DNA from: a virus
Lineage: Duplodnaviria > Caudoviricetes
Length of the DNA: 64,000 nucleotides
Virus record (IMG/VR): IMGVR_UViG_3300033076_001139
Span: 1 to 64,000 of that record
Strand: one strand, 5' to 3'
Positions within the stretch are counted from its first letter, which is position 1. Each line of letters begins with the position of its first letter. The translations under genes and the position numbers were made by a program. Under the pieces are notes generated by a model. It saw nothing but the letters and a program-made list of their open reading frames with translations, was not told the DNA's origin and did no database searches. Positions 39,142 to 57,926 of this stretch are shown one piece after another.

Positions 39142-39146
39142 AAAAG

Positions 39147-41178: not shown

Positions 41179-41198
41179 TATTCCTCCTTGCTCATATA

Positions 41199-41871: not shown

Positions 41872-42019
41872 GTGAACTCCAGGAAAAGAGAATTGCGCGG
41901 AGAGGTATTTCTCTTTGCTCTACTCCCTTATGACCGGAATCCAGACAGCCTTCAGGCGCGCAAAGGGCTAAAAGAAATGCAACCCGCGAGGGACAGTATT
42001 TCTTTCCTCCCTTTCGGGA

Positions 42020-42226
42020 TCAGCTGATGACCTTGCCGGTCCTCAGGCTGACGAGGGAGAAGTCGCCCTCGTCGAGGTTCTTCTTCTTCACGAGAGCAGC
42101 GACGCCCTTGTTGTCCTCTTTGAAGAGGTCTGCGATGTAGGTCGCAGCGGACACAGCCGTCGCGATACCAATCGTGGAAGGGTTGATCTCTGCGTTCTCA
42201 AGAAGAAACTTGGGAAGAATAGCCAT
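42020..42226 (-). CDS. Hypothetical protein
   Basis: Own promoter and terminator. Confidence 0.65.
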   Translation of the reverse strand: MAILPKFLLENAEINPSTIGIATAVSAATYIADLFKEDNKGVAALVKKKNLDEGDFSLVSLRTGKVIS

Positions 42227-42279
42227 TGTGGGTTCCTTTGTCGTTGTGGCGAAGGGAGTAATTTCCCCTGCTCTAAATA

Positions 42280-42309
42280 CTTATGACAGGGTCCGGCCCG
42301 TTCTTTAGG
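42280..42309 (-). promoter_or_regulatory. Conserved phage promoter
   Basis: CCTAAA-N18-CATAAG. Confidence 0.75.
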
Positions 42310-42760
42310 CGCACAAGGTCATCTTCAGTGCGACACTTCCCAACCGGCGCGGAGGGCTATCACAGACACCTACTACACACCCCTACACTCTCACACCATC
42401 CTCTCACCATCCCCATCCCTATCCTCGCTTCCACGAGTCCCCGACGGGCACAGCTCGTAATTACCTCCCCACGGTAATTAATTAGCCAGCACGGAAATAC
42501 CCACGAATGGAAATTCATTCTGTGCCCTCCATTTGCATGCAGTCCCTACATAGATGTGTAAATAAATAGATCGATGTTTTGTGTACTGTCCTACCCACTG
42601 AGGGTTCCCCGAATTTCCATCCATGTACACACAGCGAGGATTACCTTTCCGCGCCCTGTACCATTCCCTGCCTCGATTAATATTCCGCAGCTAATAGAAA
42701 ATACCCCAGAGGGATATTTCCTACGCCTCCTCCCGCACCGGGGAGGAGACTCGCGCCGCA

Positions 42761-43138
42761 TTACGCAGCCTTCGCCTTGGCGGCCTTCTTGGCCTTGGCC
42801 TTGGCGGCGCCCTCCTCAACCGCCGCGAGCACGGCCGGAGCCGCGGACTCGTCGACGGTGGCGGAACCGGTGAAGGTCACGGTGCCGGCCTTGGGGTTGC
42901 GGGTCGCGGCGATCTGCACGAACTCGTTGGTGACCGTGCGGGTCTCCGAGTCGCTGTCCCAGTGGATCAAACCACGGGCGATCAGCCCACCACCGCCGGC
43001 CTTGGCGAGCGTCATCCAGGGGTTCGTCTCCTCCAGGATGAAGACATCGACCGCGGCGATGAGCATCGCCACGCCGCCGGCGGTGAGGTTGGGATTGTTG
43101 TGAATGGGATCGGGGAGAAGGGCCATGTGGGCCTCCAT
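42761..43138 (-). CDS. Hypothetical protein with Lys/Ala-rich tail
   Basis: Extreme GC3 bias; own promoter. Confidence 0.7.
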   Translation of the reverse strand: MEAHMALLPDPIHNNPNLTAGGVAMLIAAVDVFILEETNPWMTLAKAGGGGLIARGLIHWDSDSETRTVTNEFVQIAATRNPKAGTVTFTGSATVDESAAPAVLAAVEEGAAKAKAKKAAKAKAA

Positions 43139-43222
43139 GAGCGAGGGTCTCGTATTGGTTGTGCCAACCATCCCCGAACCTACGGGGATGGCGAGGAAAG
43201 GCTACGATTTCCTGCTCATATT

Positions 43223-43252
43223 ATTATGACCGGTAATCCCGAATATTTTAGG
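43223..43252 (-). promoter_or_regulatory. Conserved phage promoter
   Basis: CCTAAA-N18-CATAAT. Confidence 0.75.
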
Positions 43253-43350
43253 CGCAAGGGATACCCGAGCCCGAGGATCCCGAGCCTTGTATACGTGTAT
43301 AGAGTTACGGTCTTGGAACGGCCGGGAGGGGTACCCCGGTGTTAGACAGA

Positions 43351-43421
43351 GGCACATATTCTGGGATACCCCGAATTAGGAAAACAGCGGCACATATTCT
43401 GGGGGTACCCGAATCAGGAAA
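43351..43421. repeat. Imperfect ~33-bp direct repeat with GGTACC-like cores
   Basis: GGCACATATTCTGGG..TACCC.GAAT.AGGAAA at 43351 and 43389. Confidence 0.8.
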
Positions 43422-43739
43422 TACCCCTCCCATTAATTGTGGGTACCCGAACCCCGCACAAACCCTATTAAAAAATTGGGTTATAGAAAATGGAATAGGG
43501 GTACGGACAGCCCTTTGGATGCGCCGAAAAATTGGTTTATTCGGGGCTAAGAAAATGGCCTCCCCGTGGGCGGGAGGCCGGACATCACGGACCCTGCTCG
43601 GGTGCCGTTCTGTCGTGTACCAGCTCGGACCACTCCCGAAGCCCGAGCTGGAAAAGGACCTCGCTCAACGGGTGCGCGACCACGTTGTGCAAGGTCCATT
43701 GGAACCGGGGCGGTAGCCGCCCCAGTAGGCGGGGTAGGT

Positions 43740-44144
43740 TCATTCGGGCAGGGTGAACTGGTCACCCTTGCCGTCGAAGTACCCCCACTTGCCGGCGAGG
43801 GCGGGACCGTCCTTCTCGGTCCAGCCCCCTGTCAGCACGACGTTGCTGTGGACGGGGGAGACCCCGATATCCACAGCAACAGTCACGTGGGCAGTGTCGT
43901 TGCGGGTTTCTGCACCCTCAACAACGACCGCCTGGATACCGTCCCGATCGACGTACCCGACGACGCGGAGCGTCACGGGCTTGCCAATCGGGAGCTGGCA
44001 CACCTCCTCTGCCGTGGGCTTGAACGCCCACGTCATGTGGTGGCAGGTCTGCTTTTCGCGCAGAGGGCTGAGCGTGGCGAACCACGCTTTCAGCTCCTCG
44101 CGAGCGGTGGGGTCTAGGATGACCCCAGCGTAGATGGGTCTCAT
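43740..44144 (-). CDS. 2H phosphoesterase family protein
   Basis: Two HxT motifs (HHMTW, AHVTV) and PVHSN. Confidence 0.75.
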   Translation of the reverse strand: MRPIYAGVILDPTAREELKAWFATLSPLREKQTCHHMTWAFKPTAEEVCQLPIGKPVTLRVVGYVDRDGIQAVVVEGAETRNDTAHVTVAVDIGVSPVHSNVVLTGGWTEKDGPALAGKWGYFDGKGDQFTLPE

Positions 44145-44407
44145 GACCCCACCTCGCGGACAAGGGCAAAGAGGACGTCGCGGCGGGCGTCCCCCTCGAC
44201 CTCTACCCCGTTGACCTGGATTTCCAGGACACACTCGTACTCGTCTGTGACGAGCAGATCAATGTGCTTGTCACCTACAAGCACCGAGGCAGACCTGCTG
44301 CCCCCGACGTCGAAGACCAGTCCGCAGACGGTCTCCTCCGCCTCGCGGAGCTTCTGGCGCTCCGCTGCCGTCTTCTGCTGCCGAAGCAACTGTTCCAAAA
44401 CCGTCAT
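44141..44407 (-). CDS. Hypothetical protein
   Basis: Promoter plus AGGAGG. Confidence 0.65.
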   Translation of the reverse strand: MTVLEQLLRQQKTAAERQKLREAEETVCGLVFDVGGSRSASVLVGDKHIDLLVTDEYECVLEIQVNGVEVEGDARRDVLFALVREVGS

Positions 44408-44612
44408 GAAGCCTCCTATGTGGGGAGGAAAGTCCCCTGCTTCATGTTCTTATGACCGGGTCTGGGCCTGTTTTGGCGTGGGTAAATAAGAAGGTGTTTT
44501 ATAGCTTTTTATTGGGGTGGAAAATTCGGGCCGCGTGAGTACAAGGTAAAAGAAACGACCCACCTGTGCGGTAGGGTCGTTACCTCCCCGACCCTTTCAG
44601 GCCGGGGAGGAT

Positions 44613-45077
44613 TTACGCAGCGCGCTCTTCCGCGCGCCTAGCCAGCATGGCGAGCGTTTCCTCGAACGTACCGAAACGCGCGTAGCGGTACTCAAGCTGC
44701 GTGGCGCGCAGCTTGAGTTCGTACTCGTAGGGCTCCTTGGCGTTGTTCGCCCGGAAGTGGAGGACGATCTCGTCCCCCTCCTTGAGGTTCTGGAGAACAC
44801 GCAGGGGGATGTGCTGGGGCAGCCGCCCCATCAGTTCCTTCTCCCCCAGCTCCGACCAGTCGTGGCAGTGCCAGTTCTGGCACTCCGGGCCGATGGCCCA
44901 GAATTCGACCATGAGGTCGTTGTCCTGGAACTCGATCCCGGGGAAGTTTCGGTATCGACGAGTGTACAACTCGTCGTCGAACCCGTTCTCGTTGGGGTTC
45001 TTCAGCTCCTCAAACTTGAAGAGACGGTTGGGGACGAGGAAGAAATTGCCGGTGAGAGTACGCACGATGCGACCCAA
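44613..45077 (-). CDS. Hypothetical protein
   Basis: Promoter at 45128; terminator downstream. Confidence 0.6.
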   Translation of the reverse strand: MGRIVRTLTGNFFLVPNRLFKFEELKNPNENGFDDELYTRRYRNFPGIEFQDNDLMVEFWAIGPECQNWHCHDWSELGEKELMGRLPQHIPLRVLQNLKEGDEIVLHFRANNAKEPYEYELKLRATQLEYRYARFGTFEETLAMLARRAEERAA

Positions 45078-45373
45078 GCAGAACGGGGAATAGGGAAAGG
45101 TTGAGTTAGCCCTTTCTGCTTCATATACTTATGACCGGATTTTGGCCTATTTTGAATCCATGCAACGGGCGCGCAGGTGTGGGATACTCCTGAGATGGAA
45201 GACTTCCGTATTTCGCTGCACCCAGGCCTTCGCCGGCTGGGATTTATCGTAGGCTTTGCCCTGATCGCCGCTGGTCTGATCCTGGGCTGGATACGTTCCG
45301 GCCAGCCCGTTCAGTTACCGCCTACTGGGTACAAAAAATAAACCGCCCCTCACAAAGAGGGGCGGTAGCAAGG

Positions 45374-46147
45374 CTACGAGTCGGTTGACTTCTTTTTAAG
45401 ATGTCTGTACGCGGCGTACCCTAGCCCCAGACCTCCAACAGCCCCGGCACCCAAGAGGGCCGGAGACACACCGGAGCCCCCTCCCTCAGCGGAACCCCTA
45501 GTAGCTTTGCCCCGGCTTACTGCTGGGATGCGCGTAGGTGTCGAGGTAGGTGTTGCGGTAGGTGTCGGCGTGTGCACGAGTACTGGGCGTTCTTTATGGC
45601 GAGTAGGCCACGGAGACGTGACGTACAGGTTGTTTAGCCGCTTAGTTTCGTTCTGTATCTGTGCTTTCCCTGTTTCCATACCTCTTTTAAAGGACAGCTT
45701 ACCCTCCATGGCCTTCTTAACGGCGCGCCCAAGCCGAGAGTTCCTAATTTCGTCGACTGATTGAGCCACTTCTGTTAAAGTCTCTGGGTGAGTCGCGAAG
45801 GGTTCGACGCGGGTTAGGCTCTTTGTTGGTGTTTTTCCAAGACCTAGTGACTGGAGGTGCCGGCTGCGCGCCGCGCGCTGGGTTGTGTCGAGGCGATATC
45901 CACGAAGGGGGACTGTGCCAAATTGTCCACTGAAAAGACGTATACCTAGCGGCCCACCAAGGATCTTCGCGTGTTCTCTGATAGCCTCTGGTGTTAAGTT
46001 TTTAGGCAGCTTGTGCATTTCCTGTATAAGAGGGATACTGCCCAGAAATGCTCTATTAGAGGAAATAGCGCGGTAGCGCTCGTGCCATGGATACGTGGCC
46101 AGCTTCTCTAGTTCTGTAAAAAACGCGTGCATGGCCTGCTTGTTCAT
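45374..46147 (-). CDS. Basic protein with AFFTELEKLA leader and Gly-rich hydrophobic C-terminus
   Basis: Same leader as the genes at 4362-5396. Confidence 0.7.
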   Translation of the reverse strand: MNKQAMHAFFTELEKLATYPWHERYRAISSNRAFLGSIPLIQEMHKLPKNLTPEAIREHAKILGGPLGIRLFSGQFGTVPLRGYRLDTTQRAARSRHLQSLGLGKTPTKSLTRVEPFATHPETLTEVAQSVDEIRNSRLGRAVKKAMEGKLSFKRGMETGKAQIQNETKRLNNLYVTSPWPTRHKERPVLVHTPTPTATPTSTPTRIPAVSRGKATRGSAEGGGSGVSPALLGAGAVGGLGLGYAAYRHLKKKSTDS

Positions 46148-46175
46148 TGTGGACCTCTCTATTGACTCCGCTACC

Positions 46176-46427
46176 TTACTCTACCCGCACTGCACGTACC
46201 AACAAGATCTTGGCTTCCCGGGACAGCCGTTTAACACGGCACTCTTCTTTTAGCGCGACGCTCTTGGACGCACACGGAGAAAGGTAAACGAGCGTAAGCG
46301 GGGCACGGCCACGTGTGTACTTCGCGCCCTTACCTGCCTCGTGCTGGGAAAGGCGGCGGGGGAGGCTGTTCGTGATGCCCGTGTAAAGCGTGCCGTCGGC
46401 GCAGTAGAGGATGTAGAGGAAGTACAA
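46176..46427 (-). CDS. GIY-YIG nuclease (UPF0213-like)
   Basis: YILYCADGTLYTGIT...RRLSQH..GKGAKYTRGR. Confidence 0.9.
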   Translation of the reverse strand: MYFLYILYCADGTLYTGITNSLPRRLSQHEAGKGAKYTRGRAPLTLVYLSPCASKSVALKEECRVKRLSREAKILLVRAVRVE

Positions 46428-46474
46428 AAGAAAAATCCGCAGCGGATGCTGCGGATAACTTCTTGAGGGGCGGT

Positions 46475-46720
46475 CTAGCGCATGCCTAGCAAACGACCTA
46501 TCAGTTTTCCGGGACCAAAACGACCTACTTGGGCCTTTGCCTTTAGCTGGCTAATAGCAGAGTTCATGGGCGGCATTGACTTAGCCGTTGCCATGGTTTT
46601 TGCGGCCTGTAGCTGCTCCGCCCCGGCCGCTTCCTTGTCGAGAAGCGCCAGCTCGTAGATGTCGTAGACATCGTCTACAGATGCAATCTTAGCAAACTCT
46701 TGAACGTACGATGTGCTCAT
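46475..46720 (-). CDS. Leader-cargo protein (EFAKIASVDDVYDIYELALLDKEA)
   Basis: Leader shared with 46895-47260. Confidence 0.7.
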   Translation of the reverse strand: MSTSYVQEFAKIASVDDVYDIYELALLDKEAAGAEQLQAAKTMATAKSMPPMNSAISQLKAKAQVGRFGPGKLIGRLLGMR

Positions 46721-46807
46721 TTTTTACCTCTATTTTGGAAAGTATGGAGTCTTAGGACTACCCACCAATTCCGCGTCTTGCGAGGGGAATAGAAATTGCG
46801 CGGTTTG

Positions 46808-46855
46808 CTGTCTCTGTCAGCGCAGGAGAGGATGTAGAGGAAGTACAAAAGAAAA
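46808..46855 (-). pseudogene. Truncated duplicate of the GIY-YIG 5' end
   Basis: LYFLYILSCAD; 46822-46855 nearly identical to 46401-46434. Confidence 0.65.
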
Positions 46856-46894
46856 CCCGTAGCGTTCGCTACGGGTTTTCTTAACAAGCTAGCG

Positions 46895-47260
46895 CTACCG
46901 GAAGCGTAGCTTTCCCTGTCGTGAAAGCTGAGCAGAACCATCAAGGGCGGGATTCCACGGCATGCCCTCTGGGCGAGATCCGCGCGCCATGCCTAGAGTA
47001 TCCTGAATACGATTTTTGAACTGTGCCGTTTGCGCGGGAGATGACCCGTGTATCCGCTGCATGTCGGCAAGCGAGTGCATCATTGAGTCCTTGACCGCAC
47101 GGAAATTTGGCTGCTTTCCCGCGCGACCAGCTGCGTACGCCAGCAAAGCCTGGCGACCCGTAGCTGAGGCCTCCTTGTCGAGAAGCGCCAGCTCGTAGAT
47201 GTCGTAGACATCGTCTACAGATGCGGTCTTTGCAAACTCGTGAATTGCGGAAATGCTCAT
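46895..47260 (-). CDS. Leader-cargo protein (EFAKTASVDDVYDIYELALLDKEA)
   Basis: 53-bp identity with 46632-46684. Confidence 0.7.
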   Translation of the reverse strand: MSISAIHEFAKTASVDDVYDIYELALLDKEASATGRQALLAYAAGRAGKQPNFRAVKDSMMHSLADMQRIHGSSPAQTAQFKNRIQDTLGMARGSRPEGMPWNPALDGSAQLSRQGKLRFR

Positions 47261-47759
47261 TTGAAAGTCTCCTGAGTAGGCGAAACAATCTTAGTACTAA
47301 AAAACGGACCCTGCAAGCGGGTCCGTAACGTCATTCTTCCTCTCCCGTCCTTGTAGGACGAACGAGAGAAACATCAAGCCCGACAAGCGGAAGCATACGC
47401 CGCAACCGACGCGCATTGCTTCGAGCCTCCCGACTCGAACGCCACGTCGTCTGTCGCATGTTTGCCTGCCTCCATTCGTCTAGGTCCCGCGCGTAGGACT
47501 CCCATTCCCGCGCGGCTTCTTCCAACAGTCTGTAGTCCATTTACGCCTCCCCCATGCCGTACGCCTCGACGTAGGCGTACATCCAGGCCACTAAGATCAG
47601 CGGCCAATTTTCCATCCCAGCAGTTTCCAGCTCAGCCATAATGCACTCCTTAGCGTGCATTTTCTTATGACACCTAAACGAAAAACACCCCAGTCTCCCT
47701 TCCGGGGTGAGTTTCGTTTGCCAACCCCTTTGCGCGAGTTGGCGGGTCTGGCGTGTGGG

Positions 47760-48323
47760 CTACTTGACCGCGGCCCACTTACTCCAATACCCGACCGCGC
47801 CCATGTAGGCGTCGCGGTCAAGAGGTACCCCAGAACCACCCTCAGCCAGCGGAAGCGCGTTCCGCAGGATGGTCATCGGGTTCATTGGCGCCTCCTCCGG
47901 CGTGGGCGCCGAATTGATGGAGATGACCACCCATTCCACCCCCTCCGGGATCTGCATCCCCTCCTTCTCCACTAGGTGGGCCCTTGTGTACAGGACCACA
48001 TCGAGGAAGGAGGCCTTGCCGGCCGTGACATCCTTGGCGTCAAACCAGCGTACGAGAACCGGAAGCTCCTCCGGTCTGCGGGCTTCGTAGCCCGTCCGGA
48101 GTAGGTGCTCGTTTTCCGGCGTGACCTCCGCAACGCCGTCGAGGGCGTCGGTGAAGTTTTCGAGGAACAGGTGCTTGCAAAACGGCGCGTAGCCGTTTGC
48201 CTCGCTGACCGGGGTCAGGGCGTTGAGGGCAGACTCAAACTGCTCGGGAGAGCAGTCGAGGATCTTGGTTCCGCCGAAACCGGGGTTGAAGTGCCGCTTG
48301 GCGAAATCACAGACGAAAATCAT
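47760..48323 (-). CDS. DUF3228-like protein
   Basis: GYAPFCKHLF, YEARRPEELPVLVRWF, PMTILRNAL..GGSGVPLDR. Confidence 0.8.
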   Translation of the reverse strand: MIFVCDFAKRHFNPGFGGTKILDCSPEQFESALNALTPVSEANGYAPFCKHLFLENFTDALDGVAEVTPENEHLLRTGYEARRPEELPVLVRWFDAKDVTAGKASFLDVVLYTRAHLVEKEGMQIPEGVEWVVISINSAPTPEEAPMNPMTILRNALPLAEGGSGVPLDRDAYMGAVGYWSKWAAVK

Positions 48324-48466
48324 GGCATTTCTCCTTTTGTGCCATGTTGATGAACACGCGACCGATGGCATCGCGCGAAAGCGGTAAGAGCCCAGCTTCA
48401 ACAACTTATGGCAGAAATTAGGGCTAAATTAGAAACCCCAGAATTGCTCCTGGGGTTTCCTTCAGA

Positions 48467-49198
48467 TCAGTACCAAGCGTGCATCGAGAACCCGTGCTTG
48501 GCCCAGAAACGGAGCCAAGTTACCGCGTTCTCGCAGTCCCACGTCGAGTCCAGTAGGTCGCGCATTTCCGGGTCTTCGTACGGCCCGTCATTTACGCATC
48601 CCCCAATCTTGTCCATGTAGTAGTCGATTGCGGTTTTGTTAGCCTCTCGCCAATCTAGGACTTTCTGCTCTAGAGCATCGGCGTAGGACTTCATCTCGTC
48701 GGGGTCCATGTCCTGGTACGCCTGATCTGCAAGTTCTTGGCCGATAATCTTCTCGGCGTATCCAATGACCTTGCCTCGGAAGCTCTCGGGACCGGTCAGC
48801 ATGCCGGTGATTCGCCCAAGCCCTTCCCTGTTCTTGGCAAGGTCCGGCACGTACTTGCCGCGATTGGCCGTCAGCCAAGATTCGAGGGTTGGGTAGGCTT
48901 CAAAGAACGCAGGTCGCTCAGCCTTGCTGTACTGCTCGGTGACAAAGTCTGTGGCCTCTTGGTCAATCCCCACGCGAGGACAGTCAAGAATCGCGCAAGG
49001 ACTAATCTCCAGTGCGTTTTCTTCGTCTTCCAGGCGATCCAGCGTTTCCTTCAATTCCATCAGCACAAGCTTGTCCGCGCCGAGCGCGTCCTGCTCGTAG
49101 TACTTGTCCCGCGCCTCAAGCCGCTTCTTGCGGATCTCGGCGTGTTCTTCTTCCTTACCCTCGATGATCTTTGACTTGAGAACCCAGTCGAGTCCCAT
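48467..49198 (-). CDS. Hypothetical protein
   Basis: MGLDW start; RBS; terminator. Confidence 0.7.
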   Translation of the reverse strand: MGLDWVLKSKIIEGKEEEHAEIRKKRLEARDKYYEQDALGADKLVLMELKETLDRLEDEENALEISPCAILDCPRVGIDQEATDFVTEQYSKAERPAFFEAYPTLESWLTANRGKYVPDLAKNREGLGRITGMLTGPESFRGKVIGYAEKIIGQELADQAYQDMDPDEMKSYADALEQKVLDWREANKTAIDYYMDKIGGCVNDGPYEDPEMRDLLDSTWDCENAVTWLRFWAKHGFSMHAWY

Positions 49199-49365
49199 GT
49201 TCAGTTCCTGTGGGCAGCGCCCTGTTCAGTCCCGGTACAAATCCCAGTGCTTTCCAATCCTGCGGCGGCAGTAAGTTGTCCGGCCAAGACATGTGCGCCC
49301 CGTGGTGACCCACGGGGCGGCGACATGGGGCGGACTGTCCGTTGGGCAGCGTGTGCCCGCAACGC

Positions 49366-49899
49366 TCAGCCACAGAAAATCACAACCCAGGGATCAACGT
49401 GACACAGTCCCGCGCGGAACAGCATCCCGTGAATCCAACCCTCGAAGTGCCGCTGCTGTAACCCTTGCGGGATAGGTTCACGCAGTTCGATCACGTCTTT
49501 CCGCGCCTCGGGGTGAAGGGCAAGCATCTTGATGACGCCGTCCTTCGAGGTCGGATGTTGTGTTGGGTCGTGGTCTGTCCAGTGTGCGTAATCAAGGACG
49601 CGCATTGCGAGCAGGTGGATATACCTGTGTCGCTTGGGCCGGACGGCGCTTTCCTTGCGGGCGGGAGTCGTACCGTCCGTACCTTTCCCAATCTTCTTTC
49701 TCTCTGACGTAGAGATGTCTCGGATTTCCACCAGCAGCCCCTCTGTTACGATTCCCTCAAACCGTACCGTTTCCCCTCGTTCCTTCCCGCGAAACAAGTG
49801 TTTCGTTTGGTTGGTACGTTTCACAAGTTTCAGGGTGTGGTAGATCTCGTTGATCGCCCGCCCCTGCTGGCGGAGCAGGTTGTAGGCCTGCTCCGCCAT
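49366..49899 (-). CDS. Hypothetical protein
   Basis: Probable start MAEQAY. Confidence 0.5.
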   Translation of the reverse strand: MAEQAYNLLRQQGRAINEIYHTLKLVKRTNQTKHLFRGKERGETVRFEGIVTEGLLVEIRDISTSERKKIGKGTDGTTPARKESAVRPKRHRYIHLLAMRVLDYAHWTDHDPTQHPTSKDGVIKMLALHPEARKDVIELREPIPQGLQQRHFEGWIHGMLFRAGLCHVDPWVVIFCG

Positions 49900-49903
49900 C
49901 GTC

Positions 49904-50275
49904 TCACTTCTGCGTGAGTCCATCAGGCCGGTCTCCCGCCTCAATCTTGTAGCCGTGAGCCATCCACGCTTCCCTCTTGATGTTGCGGAACCAGTCTGCG
50001 ACGGTCGGGATAATTCCGCCGCAGTCTTCCTTGATGTGCTGCTCGCAGATGTAGCGAACATGCACCTTTTTGCCGTCCGAGTTGGTAATGTCCATCCCGA
50101 ACACCCGCTCGGCCTCGTAGATGCCCTGCGAGTGATGACGAAGGGCGCGATGGCGGTAATCCGCGAACGTCTCCTTCGTCGCATCCAGCCAAGCGTGGAC
50201 GGGGATGTAGTCCTCCTCCTTACCGCCCCAAATCTTCACACTCGTCTTTGCGTGGTCGCCCGGATGCATGTCCAT
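49904..50275 (-). CDS. DUF6915-like protein
   Basis: HA..S...GG...DY...H.WLD..K....RHRALRHH...EQHIKED. Confidence 0.8.
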   Translation of the reverse strand: MDMHPGDHAKTSVKIWGGKEEDYIPVHAWLDATKETFADYRHRALRHHSQGIYEAERVFGMDITNSDGKKVHVRYICEQHIKEDCGGIIPTVADWFRNIKREAWMAHGYKIEAGDRPDGLTQK

Positions 50276-50385
50276 GCTTCTCCTCGTTTTGCTTTTCAAG
50301 GGCGTCAGCAATTCGTTCCAGCGCACGGACTAGGCGCGGGAGTTGGCCGTCAAAGAACTGACGACCCAAGTTTGTGAAGGGCCAG

Positions 50386-50886
50386 TCAACCGGCATCGGC
50401 CAGTTCTTCCGGTGTGAGGTTGTGGTGGAAGTCCTCGGTCGTCATCACGTATTCCGAGTGATCCACCTTGATCCCTTCGGCGGTGAAACGCACCGTACCA
50501 AACCCACCCTCGTTGTTCTCCCAGCCGGAGTGCCAGATGGAGACCGCAAAGTGGGCGGCATCCACGAACCACTCCCACATCTCGATCTCGCTCTCGGCCT
50601 CAGTCTCGTCCCACTGATCTGCGGCCGGATTGAATATCTGGCTGAAACCGATGGTCTTGACCTTCTGAGACAGGGCCTTCTCGGCGGCCTTGCCCTTCTT
50701 CTCGCGGCTACCCTTCTTGTTCAACTTGAATGCGTCAAACTCGAACTGACCATTATCACCGCCGCCGTCGTACTTGACGGTCACGTATGCAAGGTTCCCT
50801 GCCGCAAGAATGTCTTTGAGAGGAGAGAGGAACTTCTTGGCCCGCCGATCCTGACGGGCCTTGTACTCTGCGTAGTCGAACGCCAT
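50386..50886 (-). CDS. DUF6878-like protein
   Basis: YDGGGDNG...GWENNEGGFG. Confidence 0.75.
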   Translation of the reverse strand: MAFDYAEYKARQDRRAKKFLSPLKDILAAGNLAYVTVKYDGGGDNGQFEFDAFKLNKKGSREKKGKAAEKALSQKVKTIGFSQIFNPAADQWDETEAESEIEMWEWFVDAAHFAVSIWHSGWENNEGGFGTVRFTAEGIKVDHSEYVMTTEDFHHNLTPEELADAG

Positions 50887-51393
50887 TTACTCTTCCCCCA
50901 GTTCGATTTCGTGGCTGTAGCAATCCACGTCAACAATTCGTTCACTGTGCTCCATTTCCATGCGCAGCCGGTCTACATGGACAACGACGTGGCCGTACGA
51001 GCCTTCGTTGATCTCCCAGCCTGGATGCCGCTGCTCCAGCCAGTGGTAGGCCAGCCAGTCAAGGCCGCGCAGGAGCGGAACCATCTGGTCCTCGGAACTT
51101 TCGATCCACTCGTGCTTGTCGTGATCAAACCGTGAGGACGTCACAGTGATCTCAATCTTGGTGTCGGAGAGAAATGCAGTGCGCTCCGCGTGAATGGCAC
51201 GCTGCTCCTCGTCTGCCAATCCCTCAAAGTAGTAGTAACAGTCGGACTGCGGGTCCTCGCCCGGCTTGTAGATGGCGATCTCCTCTACCTGCCCCGAATC
51301 CCCAGACCCTTCGTAGCGAATAACGGCGGCATCGTAGCCGCCGGACTTCAATGCGTTGATGACGTTCCGTAGAACTTTCTTCTCGTGACTCAT
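50887..51393 (-). CDS. DUF6878-like protein (tandem paralog)
   Basis: YEGSGDSG...GWEINEGSYG. Confidence 0.75.
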   Translation of the reverse strand: MSHEKKVLRNVINALKSGGYDAAVIRYEGSGDSGQVEEIAIYKPGEDPQSDCYYYFEGLADEEQRAIHAERTAFLSDTKIEITVTSSRFDHDKHEWIESSEDQMVPLLRGLDWLAYHWLEQRHPGWEINEGSYGHVVVHVDRLRMEMEHSERIVDVDCYSHEIELGEE

Positions 51394-51521
51394 GTACCTC
51401 CGCAGGAGTTGTCCCTGCGAAAACTTATGACCTAAAAATAAAATGCTAAAAAGAACGGCCCGATGCGTTGTCGCATCGGGCCGCCCCGCTGTTCCCCGGT
51501 CTCCCAACCAGGGTCAGCGAG

Positions 51522-51836
51522 TTACTCGGCGTTGTAGGCCACGCCGTTGGTGTACGGCTTCTTGGTGGCCTTCACGGACGCTTTGCGGAACTCGGCGTCC
51601 GCCGTCGCCGCTTCCGCCGCGTACTTGGCCTTTTCGGCCTCGAAGCGCGCCTTCTGCGCCTCTGCCTCGGCGACGCGCGCCTGCTGGGCCAGAATGAGGA
51701 GCTGGATGCCGTTGTTGGCCAAGCCGACCAACGCCGCGGTGTTGCTCTTCTGGATCTCGGCCTGGATCTCAGCCAGGCGGATGAGCGTATCGCCGCTGAT
51801 CTCGGTCTTTGCGGTGATGCTGATGTTGTTGAGCAT
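51522..51836 (-). CDS. Ala-rich helical protein
   Basis: Own promoter, AAGGAG RBS, terminator. Confidence 0.7.
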   Translation of the reverse strand: MLNNISITAKTEISGDTLIRLAEIQAEIQKSNTAALVGLANNGIQLLILAQQARVAEAEAQKARFEAEKAKYAAEAATADAEFRKASVKATKKPYTNGVAYNAE

Positions 51837-51895
51837 GGTAGTCTCTCCTTGGAAAAGAGTTTATTGCGACAGGGCTACCATTCCTGCGCTATATA

Positions 51896-51925
51896 CTTAT
51901 GGCAGGATTTGCCTATATTTTTAGG
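51896..51925 (-). promoter_or_regulatory. Conserved phage promoter
   Basis: CCTAAA-N18-CATAAG. Confidence 0.75.
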
Positions 51926-52051
51926 CTAAAAGAAATCCCAGACGGCGCGCTTATACGCGCAGCACCCCGTCGGGTGCCGGTCTCATCGTTTGCAGACGGC
52001 CACGTGCGTAGGGCGCATTCTGCGAACCGATGCTGGGATTCCTGAATTGTT

Positions 52052-52324
52052 TTAGTACTCCGCGTAGCCGCGCCAGTCGCGGCGGACGGTACGCAGGTGA
52101 CCCTGCACCTCTGCCTCGCGGTAGAGGGCCTGCTGGGCGGCCCGGCGGTCACGCTTGACCCCCTGAAGGGTTCCGTACGCCATGTAGATAACCGTGGCGC
52201 CCGTCATGCCGAGGAGCCACGGCACGCCGCCGAGGCCTGACCAGTCGATCGGCGGGGCGTGCTCCGCCGCATCTTGGTAGTTATTAACGATGGCCACGGC
52301 GAGGTTGGTAACGAAGTCGAACAT
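52052..52324 (-). CDS. Small membrane protein
   Basis: Promoter at 52393; one TM. Confidence 0.6.
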   Translation of the reverse strand: MFDFVTNLAVAIVNNYQDAAEHAPPIDWSGLGGVPWLLGMTGATVIYMAYGTLQGVKRDRRAAQQALYREAEVQGHLRTVRRDWRGYAEY

Positions 52325-52570
52325 TGGTTTCTCTCCATGAGCGGGAGACAGGTTCAGCCGAACAAAGGAAGCCAATTCTTCCTGTTCATTATATTATGAC
52401 CGATTCTTGCCCTTATTTTAGGGCCATGGTAGGCTCCTAAAACCGGAGGCAAAATGTACCGAGTCATCTCCCGCACCGCGTTCGCGCTGACGTTTACCGC
52501 CGTATTTGCGGCCCTCATGGTCAAGCGATCCTACGAGGATTGGAAAGCCGTGCGGTGATATACTCGGCGC

Positions 52571-52867
52571 ATGAAAGTCGCCGACCACCCGCATGACCGC
52601 CTACAGGAACGCACCCTCATCGCGCCCAAGGAACTGGATGCGCTGATTGACCGTGTGCGCGAAATGAAGCTCGACCCCAAGAAGACCTACCACTACGAGT
52701 GGCCGGATCGTGGGTATGCGGTCATTGCCCCTGCGCGAAAGGGCTATGACAAGCACGTGGTCAAGACCGTACTTGCGCCTCGTATGAAGCCGCCTGGGGA
52801 GAAAGTGGCCGGAATGTACCGGGCGTTCTTTGACGAGCTATTTTGCATCCTTGACAGGGCGTGCTAG
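52571..52867 (+). CDS. Hypothetical protein
   Basis: HPHDRLQERT...VVKTVL; C-terminal EKVA..AFFDEL. Confidence 0.55.
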   Translation: MKVADHPHDRLQERTLIAPKELDALIDRVREMKLDPKKTYHYEWPDRGYAVIAPARKGYDKHVVKTVLAPRMKPPGEKVAGMYRAFFDELFCILDRAC

Positions 52868-52899
52868 CCTCTCCACGCCCGAGAGGGCAAGGAGAATAA

Positions 52900-53184
52900 A
52901 TGTCAGAGAATACGAAGAAGGCGCTGATCGCGCTCATCGCGTTCGTCGGCGGCCTGCTCAGTGGTCTCGTCGGCGCTCCCTACGCTGGCCTTGTCGAGGC
53001 CGGCACGAAGGCTGCCACCGAGGTAGTCGAGGCCGTCCCCACGAAGGAGGAGGCTCCTGCTGCCCCCGCCGAGTCTGCTGCTCCGGCAGAGGCCCCGGTA
53101 GCCGAGGAGGCTGCGAAGCCCGCAGAGGCTGCCCCGGTAGCTGCTCCGGTAGCGGCCCCCGCGCCCGTACCTGCGGCCAAGTAA
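52900..53184 (+). CDS. Membrane protein with Ala/Pro-rich tail (holin candidate)
   Basis: N-terminal TM; AAGGAG RBS; near endolysin. Confidence 0.6.
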   Translation: MSENTKKALIALIAFVGGLLSGLVGAPYAGLVEAGTKAATEVVEAVPTKEEAPAAPAESAAPAEAPVAEEAAKPAEAAPVAAPVAAPAPVPAAK

Positions 53185-53239
53185 AACAAAGAAGGGCCGG
53201 GAGAATCTCTCCCGGCCCTTCGCTTTTCTGCCTACGTCA

Positions 53240-53437
53240 CTACGCCTTGTCGCTCACAAAGACGTTCAGCTCACGGGCTGCCTTGATGACGTCCGAGACG
53301 TCAAACGCAGGCCACTCGCCCGTCTCTTTGTTGTCCTTGAGGGACGCCTGAAACTTGCCCTGAGCATTGGTGACGACGATCTGGTACGCGAGGTGCAGCA
53401 GGTCCTCGCGGATCTGATATCCGCTCTTCTCGGCCAT
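53240..53437 (-). CDS. Hypothetical small protein
   Basis: SGYQIREDLL...DVIKAARELNVFVS; AGGAG RBS. Confidence 0.65.
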   Translation of the reverse strand: MAEKSGYQIREDLLHLAYQIVVTNAQGKFQASLKDNKETGEWPAFDVSDVIKAARELNVFVSDKA

Positions 53438-53603
53438 AGTAATACTCCTGTCTGTGTGTCGCCACAGGATCTCCCGTGACGTGCAGGATGTAATAAGCCC
53501 GCCGATACGGCGCAACTCCGACTAATCCGAAATACGTCGCTCTGGGCAGAGACAGGGTTATGCTACAGTCCGTACAGCCCCGTCTCATCGTGGAGCAACG
53601 ATC

Positions 53604-54308
53604 GTGACCCCAACGTCCGCCCAAAAGCACGTCATCGACTGCGTTCTATCTATCTTTGAGACGGGGCGTATTCCTACCCCCGCTAGTTACGGCACGTGCA
53701 CAATCCTGAAGGATGGGGCCGGTATTTCGTACGGCAAGCACCAGTGCACCGACCGCGCAGGCAGCCTTGACCTCGTCGTGAAGCGGTACATCGCCAAGGG
53801 CGGCACACACTCGCAGTCGCTTAAGGACTTCCTGCCTTACCTAGCGGCAAACAAGTCCTGTGCGGAGGTGCCGGGCGGTAAGTACTCGACTGAGACGCAG
53901 ACCCTGATCAATCTTCTAAAGGCGGCTGGCCTTGACCCCGTCATGCAGGCCGCTCAGGATGAGATCTTTGATGAGGTCTATTTTACACCGGCCCTCAACC
54001 ATGCAGCCTCTGCTGGCGTCGGCAAGGCACTTAGTCTTCTCGTCATTTACGACACCTGCATCCATTCAGGGCCCGGTGGGGTGGCCCTGATTCGGAACCT
54101 ATTCCCTGAGAAGAGCCCGGCAGGCGGCGGTAACGAGGAGGCCTGGGTTCGGGCCTACCTAAACGCGCGACGGACATGGCTTGCTAAAAATAGCAATCCA
54201 CTCGTGCAAAAAACCGTGTACCGTATCGACGCCCTGCTTGCGCTGGTTAACGCAGGCAACTGGGAATTACGGACACCCGTGCGCGTGTGCGGGGTCGTGA
54301 TTCCCTGA
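53604..54308 (+). CDS. Endolysin, chitosanase (GH46)-like lysozyme fold
   Basis: SIFETG...DGAGISYG..Q.T...GSL; YDTCIHSG. Confidence 0.75.
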   Translation: MTPTSAQKHVIDCVLSIFETGRIPTPASYGTCTILKDGAGISYGKHQCTDRAGSLDLVVKRYIAKGGTHSQSLKDFLPYLAANKSCAEVPGGKYSTETQTLINLLKAAGLDPVMQAAQDEIFDEVYFTPALNHAASAGVGKALSLLVIYDTCIHSGPGGVALIRNLFPEKSPAGGGNEEAWVRAYLNARRTWLAKNSNPLVQKTVYRIDALLALVNAGNWELRTPVRVCGVVIP

Positions 54309-54700
54309 TGGAGCGTCCGATGGTCTGGATTTCTGTGGCCGCACTTGCTGGCCTACTCGCGGGTGGCGGGGCTGTGTTCGGCATTATGCATCGCCAAGAG
54401 CCCCCTCTTACGGAGCCCGACACCACAGCCGAGGGTCAGGCATTTGCCGTGGCCTCTCTGACAAATCTAGATATCGTGCAAGGAGTCTGCGACCCCTCGT
54501 ACATTAAGGAACGCGGGGATGGCCTCTGCCGCGAGATGTACTGCATGGCACAGGCCAACTCCACGACGGGTGCGGCTGGCGAAAAGATGTGCGACGCGGT
54601 AAGCAACGTGAACAATTCGCTCGTCATTATTGAGGCCTGCCTCAAGCTCGACGGGCAAGCTCGGCTGGACTGCCTGACGGTATTCCGCGAGCGCAAGTAA
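54308..54700 (+). CDS. Membrane-anchored Cys-rich protein (spanin candidate)
   Basis: TM plus six Cys; coupled to endolysin. Confidence 0.5.
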   Translation: MERPMVWISVAALAGLLAGGGAVFGIMHRQEPPLTEPDTTAEGQAFAVASLTNLDIVQGVCDPSYIKERGDGLCREMYCMAQANSTTGAAGEKMCDAVSNVNNSLVIIEACLKLDGQARLDCLTVFRERK

Positions 54701-54797
54701 GCTGCCGCCCCTGCTGTTGGACCTCCATACAACATCATTCTCGGCAGCAGGGGCGGTTTACTTGCTAAAAAGAGGGCCACAGGCGCCCTCAACCCCT

Positions 54798-55262
54798 CTA
54801 CAGACTCGCAAGCACCGCCATTTGCTTGGCGGCATACTTGCGAGCCCTAGGCCCCTTTCCGTTGTACTTGCGGAACATCTCCCGCTCGGAAGCAGAAGAG
54901 TCCCGCAGTCGCCGGAGGATAGCGGCGGAATATCTGAGGTTGGACTCGGGATCCCACATCTCCCATCCGTCGGGGGACGACCCAAGAGTCTCCGACCAGA
55001 CCCTCGGATGGATCTGGGCCAGGCCGATCTCGCCCGCAGAGCCGCGGGCGGAGGCATTACAGCCTGACTCGCGCCAGACTGTGACGGCCAACCACGCGGG
55101 CTTAATTCCGGCCTCGGCCGCGGCATCCTCGATCATGAACCCCAGCCCTTCTGGGTAGGGGTGAGTGCACCCCTGAACCCAAGGTTCAGGGGTGCACTCA
55201 CCGAGGTCGACAGAGGCGGGTTCGACGGCCGGCTCTGTGCAGGAAAGAAGAAACAGAAGCAT
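54798..55262 (-). CDS. Lytic transglycosylase (SLT) lipoprotein
   Basis: LLSC lipobox-like; RESG...GEIGLAQI...KYNG. Confidence 0.85.
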   Translation of the reverse strand: MLLFLLSCTEPAVEPASVDLGECTPEPWVQGCTHPYPEGLGFMIEDAAAEAGIKPAWLAVTVWRESGCNASARGSAGEIGLAQIHPRVWSETLGSSPDGWEMWDPESNLRYSAAILRRLRDSSASEREMFRKYNGKGPRARKYAAKQMAVLASL

Positions 55263-55316
55263 GTGTCCTCCGGGGCAGAATGGCTTTCTGCTCCAGATAC
55301 TTATGCCTTCCTTTTC

Positions 55317-56393
55317 TTACTTCTTTACGATCACCGTCTTGCCGGCCGTCTGCTCTCCCGAGCCGCGCCAGTAAGGAAGCAGCCACTTGTGGATCAAGTG
55401 CCGCTTCTTCTCACCTTCTCCCTTTGTAGCGAGAACGGGCTGCTCCTCTGGGTTCGAGACCCAGTAGGAGTGGATGTGCCCCGCCACAATGTGACGAGCC
55501 ACGTCCTTTTCTCCTCCCGAACTGCTGGCACGTTGAGAAGCGCGGGCCTTCTCGCTCAGACGCAGGATCGTGTGTGCCAGCACCGAGCGTCCCTTGGAGT
55601 TTTCTCGCTCCCGCTCACGGCGTGCCTTGCGATCATTTCCGCGCAAGTGCGGAACGTAGTCCTCTCGGACCTCCGTGATTTGCCCGCGAGTACGCTGCAA
55701 TAGGTAGAGCAGGTTCGTGACCATGTAGATCAGTTCCTGCTGTCCCAGCTGATCAACAGTGGCGTCCGTGAGCTTGAGCGGCTCACCTGGAAGCAGATGG
55801 AACGTGAACAAAGCATCATCCTGCGGCGGCAGGTTGTTCTTGTTCGCGTAGTCCGCTTTCTTGTCCTCGCCCACGGCAACGACCGTCACTGCCGGTTCCT
55901 GCGTAAGCAGCGACATGTCCACGTCATCCCGCTCGACCTTCTCCCGACGACGAGCGGGGTCCGCGTAGCACCGAACGAGATTCTTCGTGAGATAGAAGCC
56001 CTCGATTCGGTGGTTCCCGGACTGATTGTTGTGGATCTCGAAGCACGGCGGGATGGCTACATACATCCCACTGACCGGGACTTCCGGGAGGAGATCAAAG
56101 TTCTCCATCGGAGGCCGGGTGTTTACCAGTGCCCACGCCAGATCCTCATCGAGGATGTAGATGGGCTGGTTGCTCGCGACCCACGAGAAAAGGGCATGCA
56201 CCGCCAGGACCTGCGTGTGATCCGCGATGTGCCCCATGCCCTGCGCCTCGGCCAGAGTGATCAGCATGACGCCGACCTCTTCCGCCGTAACGGGCCGACC
56301 CCCATAGACTTCCTTCAGGAAATCCATGACGCGGTCGGCTCCGCGCAGGTATTTCTCAGGATGCTGCGTGCTACGCAGCTTGTGACCTGCCAT
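55317..56393 (-). CDS. Hypothetical protein
   Basis: C-terminal RHIVAGH...KWLLPYWRG motif. Confidence 0.7.
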   Translation of the reverse strand: MAGHKLRSTQHPEKYLRGADRVMDFLKEVYGGRPVTAEEVGVMLITLAEAQGMGHIADHTQVLAVHALFSWVASNQPIYILDEDLAWALVNTRPPMENFDLLPEVPVSGMYVAIPPCFEIHNNQSGNHRIEGFYLTKNLVRCYADPARRREKVERDDVDMSLLTQEPAVTVVAVGEDKKADYANKNNLPPQDDALFTFHLLPGEPLKLTDATVDQLGQQELIYMVTNLLYLLQRTRGQITEVREDYVPHLRGNDRKARRERERENSKGRSVLAHTILRLSEKARASQRASSSGGEKDVARHIVAGHIHSYWVSNPEEQPVLATKGEGEKKRHLIHKWLLPYWRGSGEQTAGKTVIVKK

Positions 56394-56576
56394 AGAAACT
56401 CCGTGCCCGCTTCTCTGCGGCGGGCTTGTTTGCGTAGTGGTACCCAAAGGCGAGGAACAGCTCCTCGTCTCCGATCAGGTAATTGCCCTTCACCGAGCGA
56501 AAGGCTTCATGCGTCGGGCCGTAGAGCAGGCCCGACTTGGTACGCCGCGCGAGGATCCACCTGCCGTCAACGCAGA

Positions 56577-57008
56577 TCATTCCTCGCCCTCCGTGAACCA
56601 GAACTGGAGGAATTCGGTGACCCAAGATTCCGTCCGGTAGCGGAGGACTTCAACCTCGTCGCTGTGCGCGGCCACCCACGGGGAGCCGTTGATGAACTCG
56701 GTGAGACCGCCGAAGCCCATGTTGGGTTCTGCGTACTCATGGAGGAGCTTCAGGGTAGGGAACCTTGCCGCGAGAGCGGGGACAAGGACCTGATCCTCTT
56801 CCCACTCGGTCTCGAACTCGTAGACGATGCGGCCGGGCTCGTCGGCGATGACGTCCAGCGACCAGGAGCTGACGGGGGCCTCGACCCCCAGCTTGGCGGC
56901 GAGGGCCGCCACGTCGAAGGCCTTCTCAGCCTGGACGAACTTGATGAACTCTTCGATATCGGACTGCGCACCGAGCGCAGTAATCTGCTGGAAGCAGTAG
57001 TTAGACAC
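56577..57008 (-). CDS. YubB/DUF1281-like ferredoxin-fold protein
   Basis: MSNYC...FETEW...HEYAEPNMGFGG. Confidence 0.65.
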   Translation of the reverse strand: MSNYCFQQITALGAQSDIEEFIKFVQAEKAFDVAALAAKLGVEAPVSSWSLDVIADEPGRIVYEFETEWEEDQVLVPALAARFPTLKLLHEYAEPNMGFGGLTEFINGSPWVAAHSDEVEVLRYRTESWVTEFLQFWFTEGEE

Positions 57009-57052
57009 AGAACCTCCCTATGAAGGCGGAATTGCCTTCATTTATTTATGAC

Positions 57053-57125
57053 CTAAAAACAAAGACCCTGTTCGGCTGCTGAGCCTCGCACTTCCCGTCC
57101 CTCACGGGCCGAGCAGGGTCTTTGT
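57053..57125 (-). terminator. Long branched hairpin terminator
   Basis: ACAAAGACCCTG/CAGGGTCTTTGT stem, TTTTTAG tail. Confidence 0.7.
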
Positions 57126-57132
57126 CGTCGAA

Positions 57133-57347
57133 TGGAGGAGACAAGGGGAATTGCACCCCAACACCTTGTGTGTACAGTCCTACTGAGATACCGTGCGTAC
57201 AGCCGTAGTCGTTACAGGCCTCGTCACACCCATCCCTGGTCCGCGAGAGTTGCCCCTCTCAGCGCCCACCAGTAAGATCATTTTCGAACCGTGGCGTCCC
57301 TTGGAGTTTCTAAGGCTCCGGACGGCAACTTTGCCGTTTCTGTCTCC
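57133..57347 (-). ncRNA. tRNA-like ncRNA (~215 nt) with acceptor stem, T-arm and CCA
   Basis: GGAGACA...GGGG-TGCAATT-CCCC-T-TGTCTCC-T-CCA; starts at predicted +1 of its own promoter. Confidence 0.7.
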
Positions 57348-57352
57348 TCTTT

Positions 57353-57382
57353 CTTATGGCAGGAAGAACGCCGTCTTTTAGA
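57353..57382 (-). promoter_or_regulatory. Conserved phage promoter driving the tRNA-like RNA
   Basis: TCTAAA-N18-CATAAG. Confidence 0.75.
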
Positions 57383-57926
57383 CGTTCTTCAGCGACAACG
57401 GAAATGACCGAGCCATCGTCCGACGCATGTCGGACTTCAGGACTTCAGCCATGACCGTGCGCTCCTTGGTCTTGCGACGAGCACCGATGATGAGCTGCGC
57501 CACGGTGTATCGATCAGTGCCCTGCGCAATACGGGCCAGCGTCGTCTGCTTGCCTGACTTGCTCTTGGAGATGATCCGCACGTACTTCGTGTCGGGTGCC
57601 TGCGCCTCCCAGGCAATGTCGTTGAGACGCCGAACGATGTCCGGATCTTCCCACGACGCCCCACCAACGGGGGTCGCCGCAACAGTCTCTTCCGCCTGGG
57701 GCTCTACCACCACTTCCACGGGCTCAGCCGGCCGCAGATCGAGGACCAGCGCGGAGAGCTTCTCGATGACCGTCTTGGTCACGTAGACGGGGTCGGTCGT
57801 GCCGTCAAAAACCCAGAAACCCTCTCCGTCCTCCAGGCTCGTGTACGCGCCGTGGTCACGGAACTTCTTCTCACCAACGGCCTTGTAGGCCGCGAACAAT
57901 TTCTTCGCTTCATTCGTATCGAGCAC
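57378..57926 (-). CDS. Hypothetical protein
   Basis: Promoter at 57970; GGGAG RBS. Confidence 0.65.
   Translation of the reverse strand: MLDTNEAKKLFAAYKAVGEKKFRDHGAYTSLEDGEGFWVFDGTTDPVYVTKTVIEKLSALVLDLRPAEPVEVVVEPQAEETVAATPVGGASWEDPDIVRRLNDIAWEAQAPDTKYVRIISKSKSGKQTTLARIAQGTDRYTVAQLIIGARRKTKERTVMAEVLKSDMRRTMARSFPLSLKNV

Follow-up and report, generated by a model that had tools for sequence, protein, structure and literature searches.

A phage tRNA-like RNA with an 8/4 frame and a giant, conserved variable arm

The window, meaning the whole stretch of DNA analysed here (64,000 nt), covers the initial 64 kb of an IMG/VR contig from a myovirus; the contig is 151 kb long and has an estimated completeness of 81%. 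Its large terminase is at most 28% identical to those of isolated phages, and the phage has no cultured relatives. The intergenic region 57009-57377 (369 nt) is flanked by two minus-strand open reading frames (ORFs): a 182-aa ORF upstream (57378-57926, minus strand), which forms the 5' flank of the gap, and a downstream ORF with a DUF1281_C domain (56577-57008, minus strand), which forms the 3' flank. In this gap lies a tRNA-like RNA of 215 nt (57133-57347, minus strand), which runs from a putative mature 5' G to an encoded CCA and is delimited by covariance model matches and by an indel boundary in relatives. The gene block 3' of the RNA (55317-57008, minus strand) encodes the DUF1281_C protein, a 69-aa ORF and a protein of ~360 aa, and is followed by an SLT lytic transglycosylase. 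Homologues of the ~360-aa protein carry a precomputed AcrVA2-like Pfam match, and a Pfam scan of the window's own copy gave no match; the block may be an anti-defence block. Genes for SmpB, a CCA-adding enzyme and RtcB were looked for in the contig and none was found.

Upstream of the RNA we find a phage-type promoter, TAAA-N16-GCCATAA (57354-57380, minus strand), whose TAA doubles as the stop codon of the 182-aa ORF and which places the start of transcription within a few bases of G57347. The more general motif TAAA-N16-GNCATAA is strongly over-represented, with seven matches in the window, all seven on the minus strand, where 0.03 would be expected by chance, and nine in the whole contig, again all on the minus strand and each at the head of a transcription unit. 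The promoter that the earlier note had placed ahead of the RNA is one of these seven, and it is conserved upstream of the RNA in the related contigs L073, L074, L202 and L211. The copies in the window span 38088-57380 (minus strand), and usually G(A/C)GCAGG and a 5' hairpin are located ~7 nt past the motif. The phage also carries 13 tRNA genes as called by ARAGORN (38264-39222 and 20796-20885, minus strand), each with an encoded CCA and an anticodon for codons that end in A or U. Twelve of them form a cluster that apparently lies behind a sigma-70-like TTGACG-N17-TTATGC sequence rather than the phage promoter motif.

On the 3' side, the predicted terminator is borne out by a long hairpin with a U-run (57053-57126, minus strand; -39.3 kcal/mol, z -4.45), which is common to the RNA and the upstream gene and is conserved in relatives with and without the RNA. 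A coding reading was ruled out by stops in every frame, and no reading frame is open across all variants. It had been expected that ARAGORN and Rfam would give no strong tRNA or tmRNA match, and at normal thresholds neither gave any on the full RNA; at E<=10 the sole Rfam match was of the T arm to Tymo_tRNA-like, at 18 bits compared with a gathering score of 40 bits. As far as can be read from the genomes compared, the RNA gene is real, is predicted to be transcribed separately and ends in CCA, and we take its boundaries and its promoter family as established.

In public assemblies we located 11 relatives of the upstream 182-aa protein. Their contigs all have their genes arranged as 86 aa, 182 aa, gap, DUF1281_C, 69 aa, AcrVA2-like, SLT. 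The gap is ~370 nt long and holds the RNA in the window contig, L073, L074/L075, L202 and L211, and it is ~120-130 nt long in L071/L072, L076-L081 and three further contigs. Promoter and RNA form a discrete cassette of ~245 bp that is present or missing as one unit, and the indel in relatives sets its limits from just past the stop codon to the CCA. This is most clearly seen in L072, whose 182-aa protein is 94% identical to that of the window and which is without exactly the stretch from stop codon to CCA; the terminator and the next promoter are kept in all relatives. No gene within +/-3 kb was found to co-vary with the cassette.

The homologue search for which the earlier note had called located the RNA in five related contigs, representing four distinct variants that are ~73% identical to each other, that all come from one narrow phage lineage and that have compensatory pairs among them. 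The window's RNA is 100% identical to L073:889-1103, while the flanking 182-aa proteins are only 78% identical, which suggests a recent exchange; the cassette would have been exchanged or lost by recombination in the conserved flanks. Beyond this lineage, BLAST against phages and E. coli showed no similarity to the RNA, and exact and degenerate motif scans of IMG/VR revealed no further copy. IMG/VR was also searched through the protein of the upstream gene, as single sequence and as alignment, and nothing was found. Among 48 TerL-related contigs (searched by BLAST, with the downstream protein and with the covariance model) there was no RNA homologue, the one 27-nt BLAST match being an ordinary tRNA-Ala. 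A core-motif scan of genome contigs gave six chance matches, none of which (0/6) fitted the model, and a metagenome scan for the T-arm motif returned ordinary tRNAs and tmRNAs only.

The covariance model (R1), built from the window's sequence and a hand-drawn structure, matches the RNA in the five contigs at 130-279 bits, with the variants other than the window's own at 130-155 bits. RNAalifold on a three-variant alignment gave the same architecture and added an eighth acceptor pair and the helix 57-62/168-173 (nucleotides are numbered from the 5' end of the RNA). In the refined structure of 64 pairs, 98.0% of the 251 cells of the four-variant alignment are paired and 15/64 pairs show compensatory (both-side) changes, as compared to 0-3 when the partners are slid by 1-3 columns; this alignment was fitted to the model, so the pair counts lean towards the structure. 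Since the slid controls and the independent RNAalifold prediction agree, we consider the covariation signal genuine. The single-sequence folding energy of the window's RNA is ordinary (z -1.1), so the evidence for the structure is comparative and thermodynamics alone would be undecisive. The secondary structure of the RNA is established by this comparison.

These data bear directly on the reading of the locus as a decaying, functionless tRNA pseudogene disrupted by an insertion. Such a pseudogene would agree with the lack of the RNA in many close relatives and with the failure of standard tools to see a tRNA, but 15 compensatory pairs and long invariant stretches among variants that are ~73% identical overall, a promoter conserved in every variant, an identical copy within a diverged genomic background and an insert that is not repeated elsewhere in the genome all argue against it. 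This reading is already disfavoured and we regard it as highly improbable.

The fold is a cloverleaf with all four arms and with the extra material at the position of the variable arm. From 5' to 3' it consists of one acceptor strand (nt 1-8), an AA linker, a hairpin (11-26), a CC linker, a second hairpin (29-45), a short purine linker, a large arm (50-188), the T arm (189-203), the other acceptor strand (204-211), the discriminator N73 and CCA. The earlier note had about 180 nt standing in place of the D and anticodon arms; this does not hold, as D-like and anticodon-like hairpins exist and the extra ~139 nt occupy the variable-arm position. Its smaller hairpins fared better: ACGGCA/UGCCGU, GAGAG/CUCUC and GUGUG..GGCC/GGCU..CGCAC are kept in 4/4 variants, with compensatory changes in the ACGGCA/UGCCGU hairpin and the GGCC/GGCU stem. 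The acceptor, the T arm and the variable-arm core are near-invariant, and the D-like and anticodon-like stems retain pairing only.

The 5' strand of the acceptor (nt 1-8, GGAGACAG; 57340-57347, minus strand) pairs with nt 204-211 in 4/4 variants. The pair A7-U of the other variants is U7-A in L202. In every variant G8 has a partner, U204 or C204, which makes this an 8-bp acceptor. The 3' strand, the discriminator U212 and the encoded CCA are read directly from the sequence (57133-57144, minus strand). N73 is U in the window and L073 and G in L074, L202 and L211, and A3-U70 is present in 4/4 variants. The T arm (nt 189-203; 57145-57159, minus strand) has an invariant 4-bp stem GGGG/CCCC of four G-C pairs and a 7-nt loop, UGCAAUU, which in L202 is the canonical UUCAACU. 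The equivalents of positions 49/65 are U.U or U.C and unpaired in every variant, so that the acceptor/T branch comprises 12 bp, split 8/4. The pairing GGAGACA/UGUCUCC, the GGGG/CCCC T arm, U73 and the encoded CCA were thus all found as the earlier note had read them.

The D-like arm (nt 11-26; 57322-57337, minus strand) has a 6-bp stem with the tetraloop AAGU and 100% of its cells paired; across variants the stem is 5-6 bp, both-side changes occur in 3/6 pairs and the tetraloop is AAGU or GGUG. The D and T loops change together and take two states only, AAGU with UGCAAUU or UGCAACU and GGUG with UUCAACU, as would be expected if the elbow contact is kept.

With its acceptor and T arm enclosing a large domain the RNA resembles a tmRNA in outline, and the same 15-nt T-arm sequence ends genuine tRNAs and tmRNAs in metagenomes. 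(The T arm GGGGUGCAAUUCCCC, with G where U55 is normal, ends many genuine tmRNAs and several tRNA species, L082-L161.) A miniature tmRNA-like ribosome-rescue RNA could also be read from the presence, in each variant, of a GCN codon followed by a short frame. However, A3-U70, which abolishes alanylation (PMC9976931), together with U or G at N73 speaks against alanine identity, since G3.U70 and A73 are missing; the frames are unconserved (ATVRK*, 20 aa, ATA*, AAI*) and lie inside the covarying helices P2 and P2b; and the RNA has the D-like and anticodon-like arms that tmRNA is without. Nor does it match tmRNA models, as ARAGORN and Rfam (gathering score, E<=10) gave nothing beyond 15 nt of the T arm in L202, and SmpB is not encoded in the contig. 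The comparison with tmRNA in the earlier note therefore does not carry over. Among the proposed roles of decoy, bait and ribosome rescue the last is the least likely, and the tmRNA-like reading is close to refuted, with a very slight chance of being right.

The variable arm (nt 50-188, ~139 nt; 57160-57298, minus strand; RNAalifold consensus) is built of the helices P2 (50-55/183-188) and P2b (57-62/168-173), a joining strand, hairpin A (76-112) and hairpin B (113-162). Both helices, P2 and P2b, are regular, 6 bp long and 100% paired, with two and three compensatory pairs, respectively, and the junction strand GAAnnnGAUCUUA between helices is invariant in all variants. Hairpin B (57186-57235, minus strand) has a core, AGGGAUGGGUGUGA ... 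GACGCACGGUAUC, that is invariant in 4/4 variants, with conserved purine-rich internal loops and a distal stem that covaries.

Some proposed pairings in this region were not kept by the comparison. The earlier note had suggested an H-type pseudoknot, of which GGAG/CUCC is a real stem and CCUU/AAGG is rejected, being missing from the other variants. Its 8-bp long-range pairing UCUUACUG/CAGUAGGA shows zero covariation and has a C.A mismatch in L202; G168-A170 covary instead with nt 60-62 within the helix 57-62/168-173. A local hairpin GGAC/GUUC (nt 49-62) fails in L202. Because of the AcrVA2-like neighbour we also considered a mimic of the Cas12a repeat, whose stem is UCUAC/GUAGA; the candidate pairing UCUUAC/GUAGGA has no covariation support, would close an 86-nt loop and matches no CRISPR repeat family, and was rejected.

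Nucleotides 60-62 have two mutually exclusive partners, 168-170 in P2b or the loop of hairpin B (57286-57291 with 57175-57180 or with 57208-57211). With P2b they are 100% paired with three compensatory pairs, and with the hairpin-B loop 93.8% paired with one. Both pairings track sequence changes across the four variants, and the dual pairing may be a conformational switch.

The invariant internal loops and junction strands look like a catalytic core, which raises the question whether the variable-arm core is an intron or ribozyme whose removal or cleavage would free an allo-tRNA of ~90 nt or tRNA halves. When the variable-arm core is removed in silico, ARAGORN calls the remaining frame of L202 a tRNA at default settings and that of L074 at a 90% threshold, and at low threshold it models L202 as a tRNA-Arg with a 136-nt intron. 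The trimmed frame of the window's own RNA gave no tRNA call by ARAGORN. We rejected the low-threshold intron model, as it contradicts the covarying helices H2, P2 and P2b, and it does not transfer to the window's RNA. No group I intron or self-cleaving ribozyme family matched at E<=10 and RtcB is missing from the contig, all of which makes excision or cleavage very unlikely.

The anticodon-like hairpin (nt 29-45; 57303-57319, minus strand) has a stem, GGAG/CUCC, that is kept with two compensatory pairs, and its loop includes CUUAGAA. Across variants the stem is 4-7 bp and the loop 7-9 nt with mismatched closing pairs. A 7-nt loop requires that such a mismatch be allowed to close it; the best fold of L202 has 8 nt. 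The loops read CUUAGAA, UUAUUGA and, in two variants, CUUCUAC. The flanks (Y32, U33, R37) are kept and the middle three differ (UAG, AUU, UCU twice), and because the flanks are kept while the triplet varies the loop could matter, which would favour a decoder or a bait. The phage's own tRNA-Leu(UAG) and tRNA-Arg(UCU) have loops that are close matches to CUUAGAA and CUUCUAC.

The RNA could serve as bait or decoy and engage a host defence enzyme that targets tRNAs, for example an anticodon nuclease or one that attacks the acceptor end, with the anticodon-like loop mimicking the target tRNA and the variable arm helping to trap or inhibit the enzyme. The C/U-U-NNN-R-N flanks with their shifting triplet and the likeness to the two phage tRNA loops agree with this, as does the cassette itself, which adjoins the DUF1281_C and AcrVA2-like genes and, as is often seen with anti-defence genes, is variably present. 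The irregular stem, the variable loop size and the mismatched closing pairs do not, and conservation peaks in the variable-arm core and the acceptor/T arm instead of the loop. On balance we consider a bait unlikely.

The published class to which the frame can be compared is that of the allo-tRNAs and 8/4 tRNA-Ser, which have an 8/4 branch, a long D stem with a tetraloop, a long variable arm and G73 or U73, carry diverse non-serine anticodons, occur in phages and are in some cases inactive in translation (PMC5389517). A class II (long) variable arm is defined as 10 or more nucleotides (PMC7609411). In our RNA we found the 8/4 branch, the tetraloop D arm, the variable arm in the right place and G73/U73. 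Concerning the synthetase, the serine identity elements are G1-C72, G2-C71, the extra arm and G73 (PMC9976931). All variants have G1-C72, G2-C71 and the extra arm, and G73 is present in 3/4 variants, the window's own having U73. For SerRS, U73 is weaker than G73.

This kinship is also visible outside the lineage. When R1 was run over 80 unrelated metagenome loci, the best match was L090:4195-4280 (43.9 bits, E about 5e-10), an 86-nt RNA with the anticodon GGA (loop UUGGAAA) in a phage tRNA cluster, judged an 8/4 tRNA-Ser from its sequence and not from a curated record. It has GGAGACUG/CGGUCUCC, AA, a 6-bp D stem with an AAG loop and CC, and in its 3' part GGGG-UGCAAGU-CCUC, G73 and CCA; GGAGACnGAA, the AAG D loop, the CC linker and the UGCAA T loop are common to both RNAs. 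Neither ARAGORN nor Rfam reported L090:4195-4280. R1 also weakly matches the phage's own tRNA-Ala and tRNA-Leu(UAG). L090 is an unrelated phage-like metagenome contig packed with tRNA genes, with the 8/4 tRNA-Ser(GGA) at 4195-4280, another non-canonical tRNA-like RNA, with a weak tRNA-Sec match, at 5572-5658 and a tmRNA at 1192-1592.

Judged by these sequence features, the frame matches the allo-tRNA/8/4 tRNA-Ser class, and we take this kinship of the frame as established. The description of the RNA in the earlier note as an undescribed tRNA mimic is accordingly half right: standard tools do not recognise it, but its frame matches a published class. What is new is the size and conservation of the variable arm. 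We found in the literature no natural tRNA or tRNA-like RNA with a conserved multi-helix variable-arm domain this large.

Given such a frame, a translationally active Ser-charged allo-tRNA that reads CUA/CUG, AGA or AAU as serine (missense or recoding) has to be weighed. The 8/4 frame, G1-C72, G2-C71, G73/U73 and long variable arm agree with SerRS identity (PMC5389517, PMC9976931). In E. coli, allo-tRNAs found in nature that carry Leu and Arg anticodons put serine into proteins (PMC5389517), and the ribosome tolerates small variable-arm aptamers (PMC7590224). Against this, the ~139-nt variable arm exceeds several-fold any for which activity has been shown, the closing pairs are mismatched with an 8-nt loop in the best fold of L202, and the phage would harm its own proteins by placing serine at CUA or AGA. 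To judge by the cognate tRNA-Leu(UAG) and tRNA-Arg(UCU) genes it carries, the phage probably uses these codons. Decoding of this kind appears quite unlikely.

The explanation that we favour, with about even confidence, is a phage accessory RNA of 8/4 descent, that is a tRNA-processed, possibly serylated scaffold with an effector domain and not a decoder. The RNA would be transcribed from the phage-specific, sigma-28-like promoter, with transcription passing into the upstream gene's terminator. Its tRNA-shaped part, with the 8/4 stack, D-loop/T-loop elbow and CCA, would then direct RNase P and 3' trimming, which would yield a stable 215-nt RNA. Because of G1-C72, G2-C71, G73/U73 and the regular 6-bp helix at the base of the variable arm, SerRS may charge the RNA, and aminoacylation is plausible from these elements. 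The variable arm, in which two stacked helices are predicted to lead to a three-way junction with an invariant hairpin, would be the working part, most likely as a protein-binding platform. The frame would thus secure processing, stability and perhaps charging and the variable arm would act as effector, a division suggested by the near-invariance of acceptor, T arm and variable-arm core while the other arms keep pairing only. The anticodon-like hairpin probably does not decode, since it is irregular; its loop, which keeps anticodon-like flanks around a changing triplet, is the chief reason to doubt this explanation.

A role of this accessory RNA in host takeover or counter-defence is suggested by its variable presence beside candidate anti-defence genes. 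By analogy, the RNA would be a natural counterpart of engineered aptamer-tagged tRNAs. Variable-arm aptamer fusions on tRNA are tolerated, and for engineered aptamer-tagged allo-tRNAs, which show the same division between frame and variable-arm effector, sequestration or recruitment by way of the variable-arm module is reported (PMC7590224). Going one step further, we tentatively propose a natural aptamer-tagged, chargeable tRNA whose variable arm is an effector or switch and which either traps a tRNA-directed host defence enzyme or brings a partner to SerRS or the ribosome; we hold this to be possible but doubtful. Since nt 60-62 have two exclusive partners that are both tracked, the variable-arm domain could toggle on binding of a protein or ligand.

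The variable arm is the least constrained part of a tRNA, yet here it is a large conserved domain. Should the RNA prove to be charged, or to be handled by the tRNA machinery, an aptamer-tRNA fusion of the engineered type would already exist in nature. With this RNA the allo-tRNA class, itself poorly understood, would reach into phage biology, and the RNA is a candidate RNA-based host-takeover or anti-defence factor; should the reading as a natural aptamer-tagged tRNA be true, the phage would possess a hitherto undescribed kind of RNA-based device for counter-defence or takeover. Both this RNA and the ordinary 8/4 tRNAs of phage genomes escape current annotation of tRNAs and ncRNAs.

Compared with known systems, the RNA is like tmRNA in that its two ends form an acceptor beside a T arm with CCA and enclose a large structured domain, and its T-arm sequence is that of some tmRNAs. 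Unlike tmRNA, it is without G3.U70, A73, a conserved tag frame and tmRNA-type pseudoknots, has D-like and anticodon-like arms and gives no model match. With tRNA-Sec it shares the 8-bp acceptor, the 6-bp D stem with a 4-nt loop, the long extra arm and G73, and for both SerRS is the expected synthetase; however, the branch is 12 bp (8/4) and not 13 bp (8/5), the triplets are UAG, AUU and UCU with no UCA anticodon, and the Rfam tRNA-Sec model (RF01852) did not match the RNA. Canonical tRNA (RF00005) has a 7/5 geometry, in contrast to the 8/4 geometry found here, and the full RNA is unmatched by ARAGORN and Rfam. TYMV-type tRNA-like structures and YrlA RNAs are non-decoding copies of the tRNA shape, as the phage RNA probably is too, but the acceptor of our RNA is an ordinary helix of the two RNA ends and not a pseudoknot as in the TYMV type, and there is neither a YrlA match nor a Ro-binding stem.

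The closest likeness of frame is to the allo-tRNA/8/4 tRNA-Ser class, which has the same 12-bp 8/4 branch, tetraloop D arm, extra arm and G73/U73, and in which varied non-serine triplets, as here Leu UAG and Arg UCU, and occurrence in phages are also seen. The RNA departs from this class in its ~139-nt multi-helix variable arm, far outside the described range, in its irregular anticodon stem-loop and in its genomic setting, as the gene stands apart from the tRNA cluster and has a phage promoter to itself. The engineered aptamer-tagged allo-tRNAs similarly carry an RNA module on the variable arm of a tRNA frame (PMC7590224); they are synthetic, with small hairpin aptamers, a 9/3 frame and known partners, whereas the phage RNA is natural and its predicted module is far larger.
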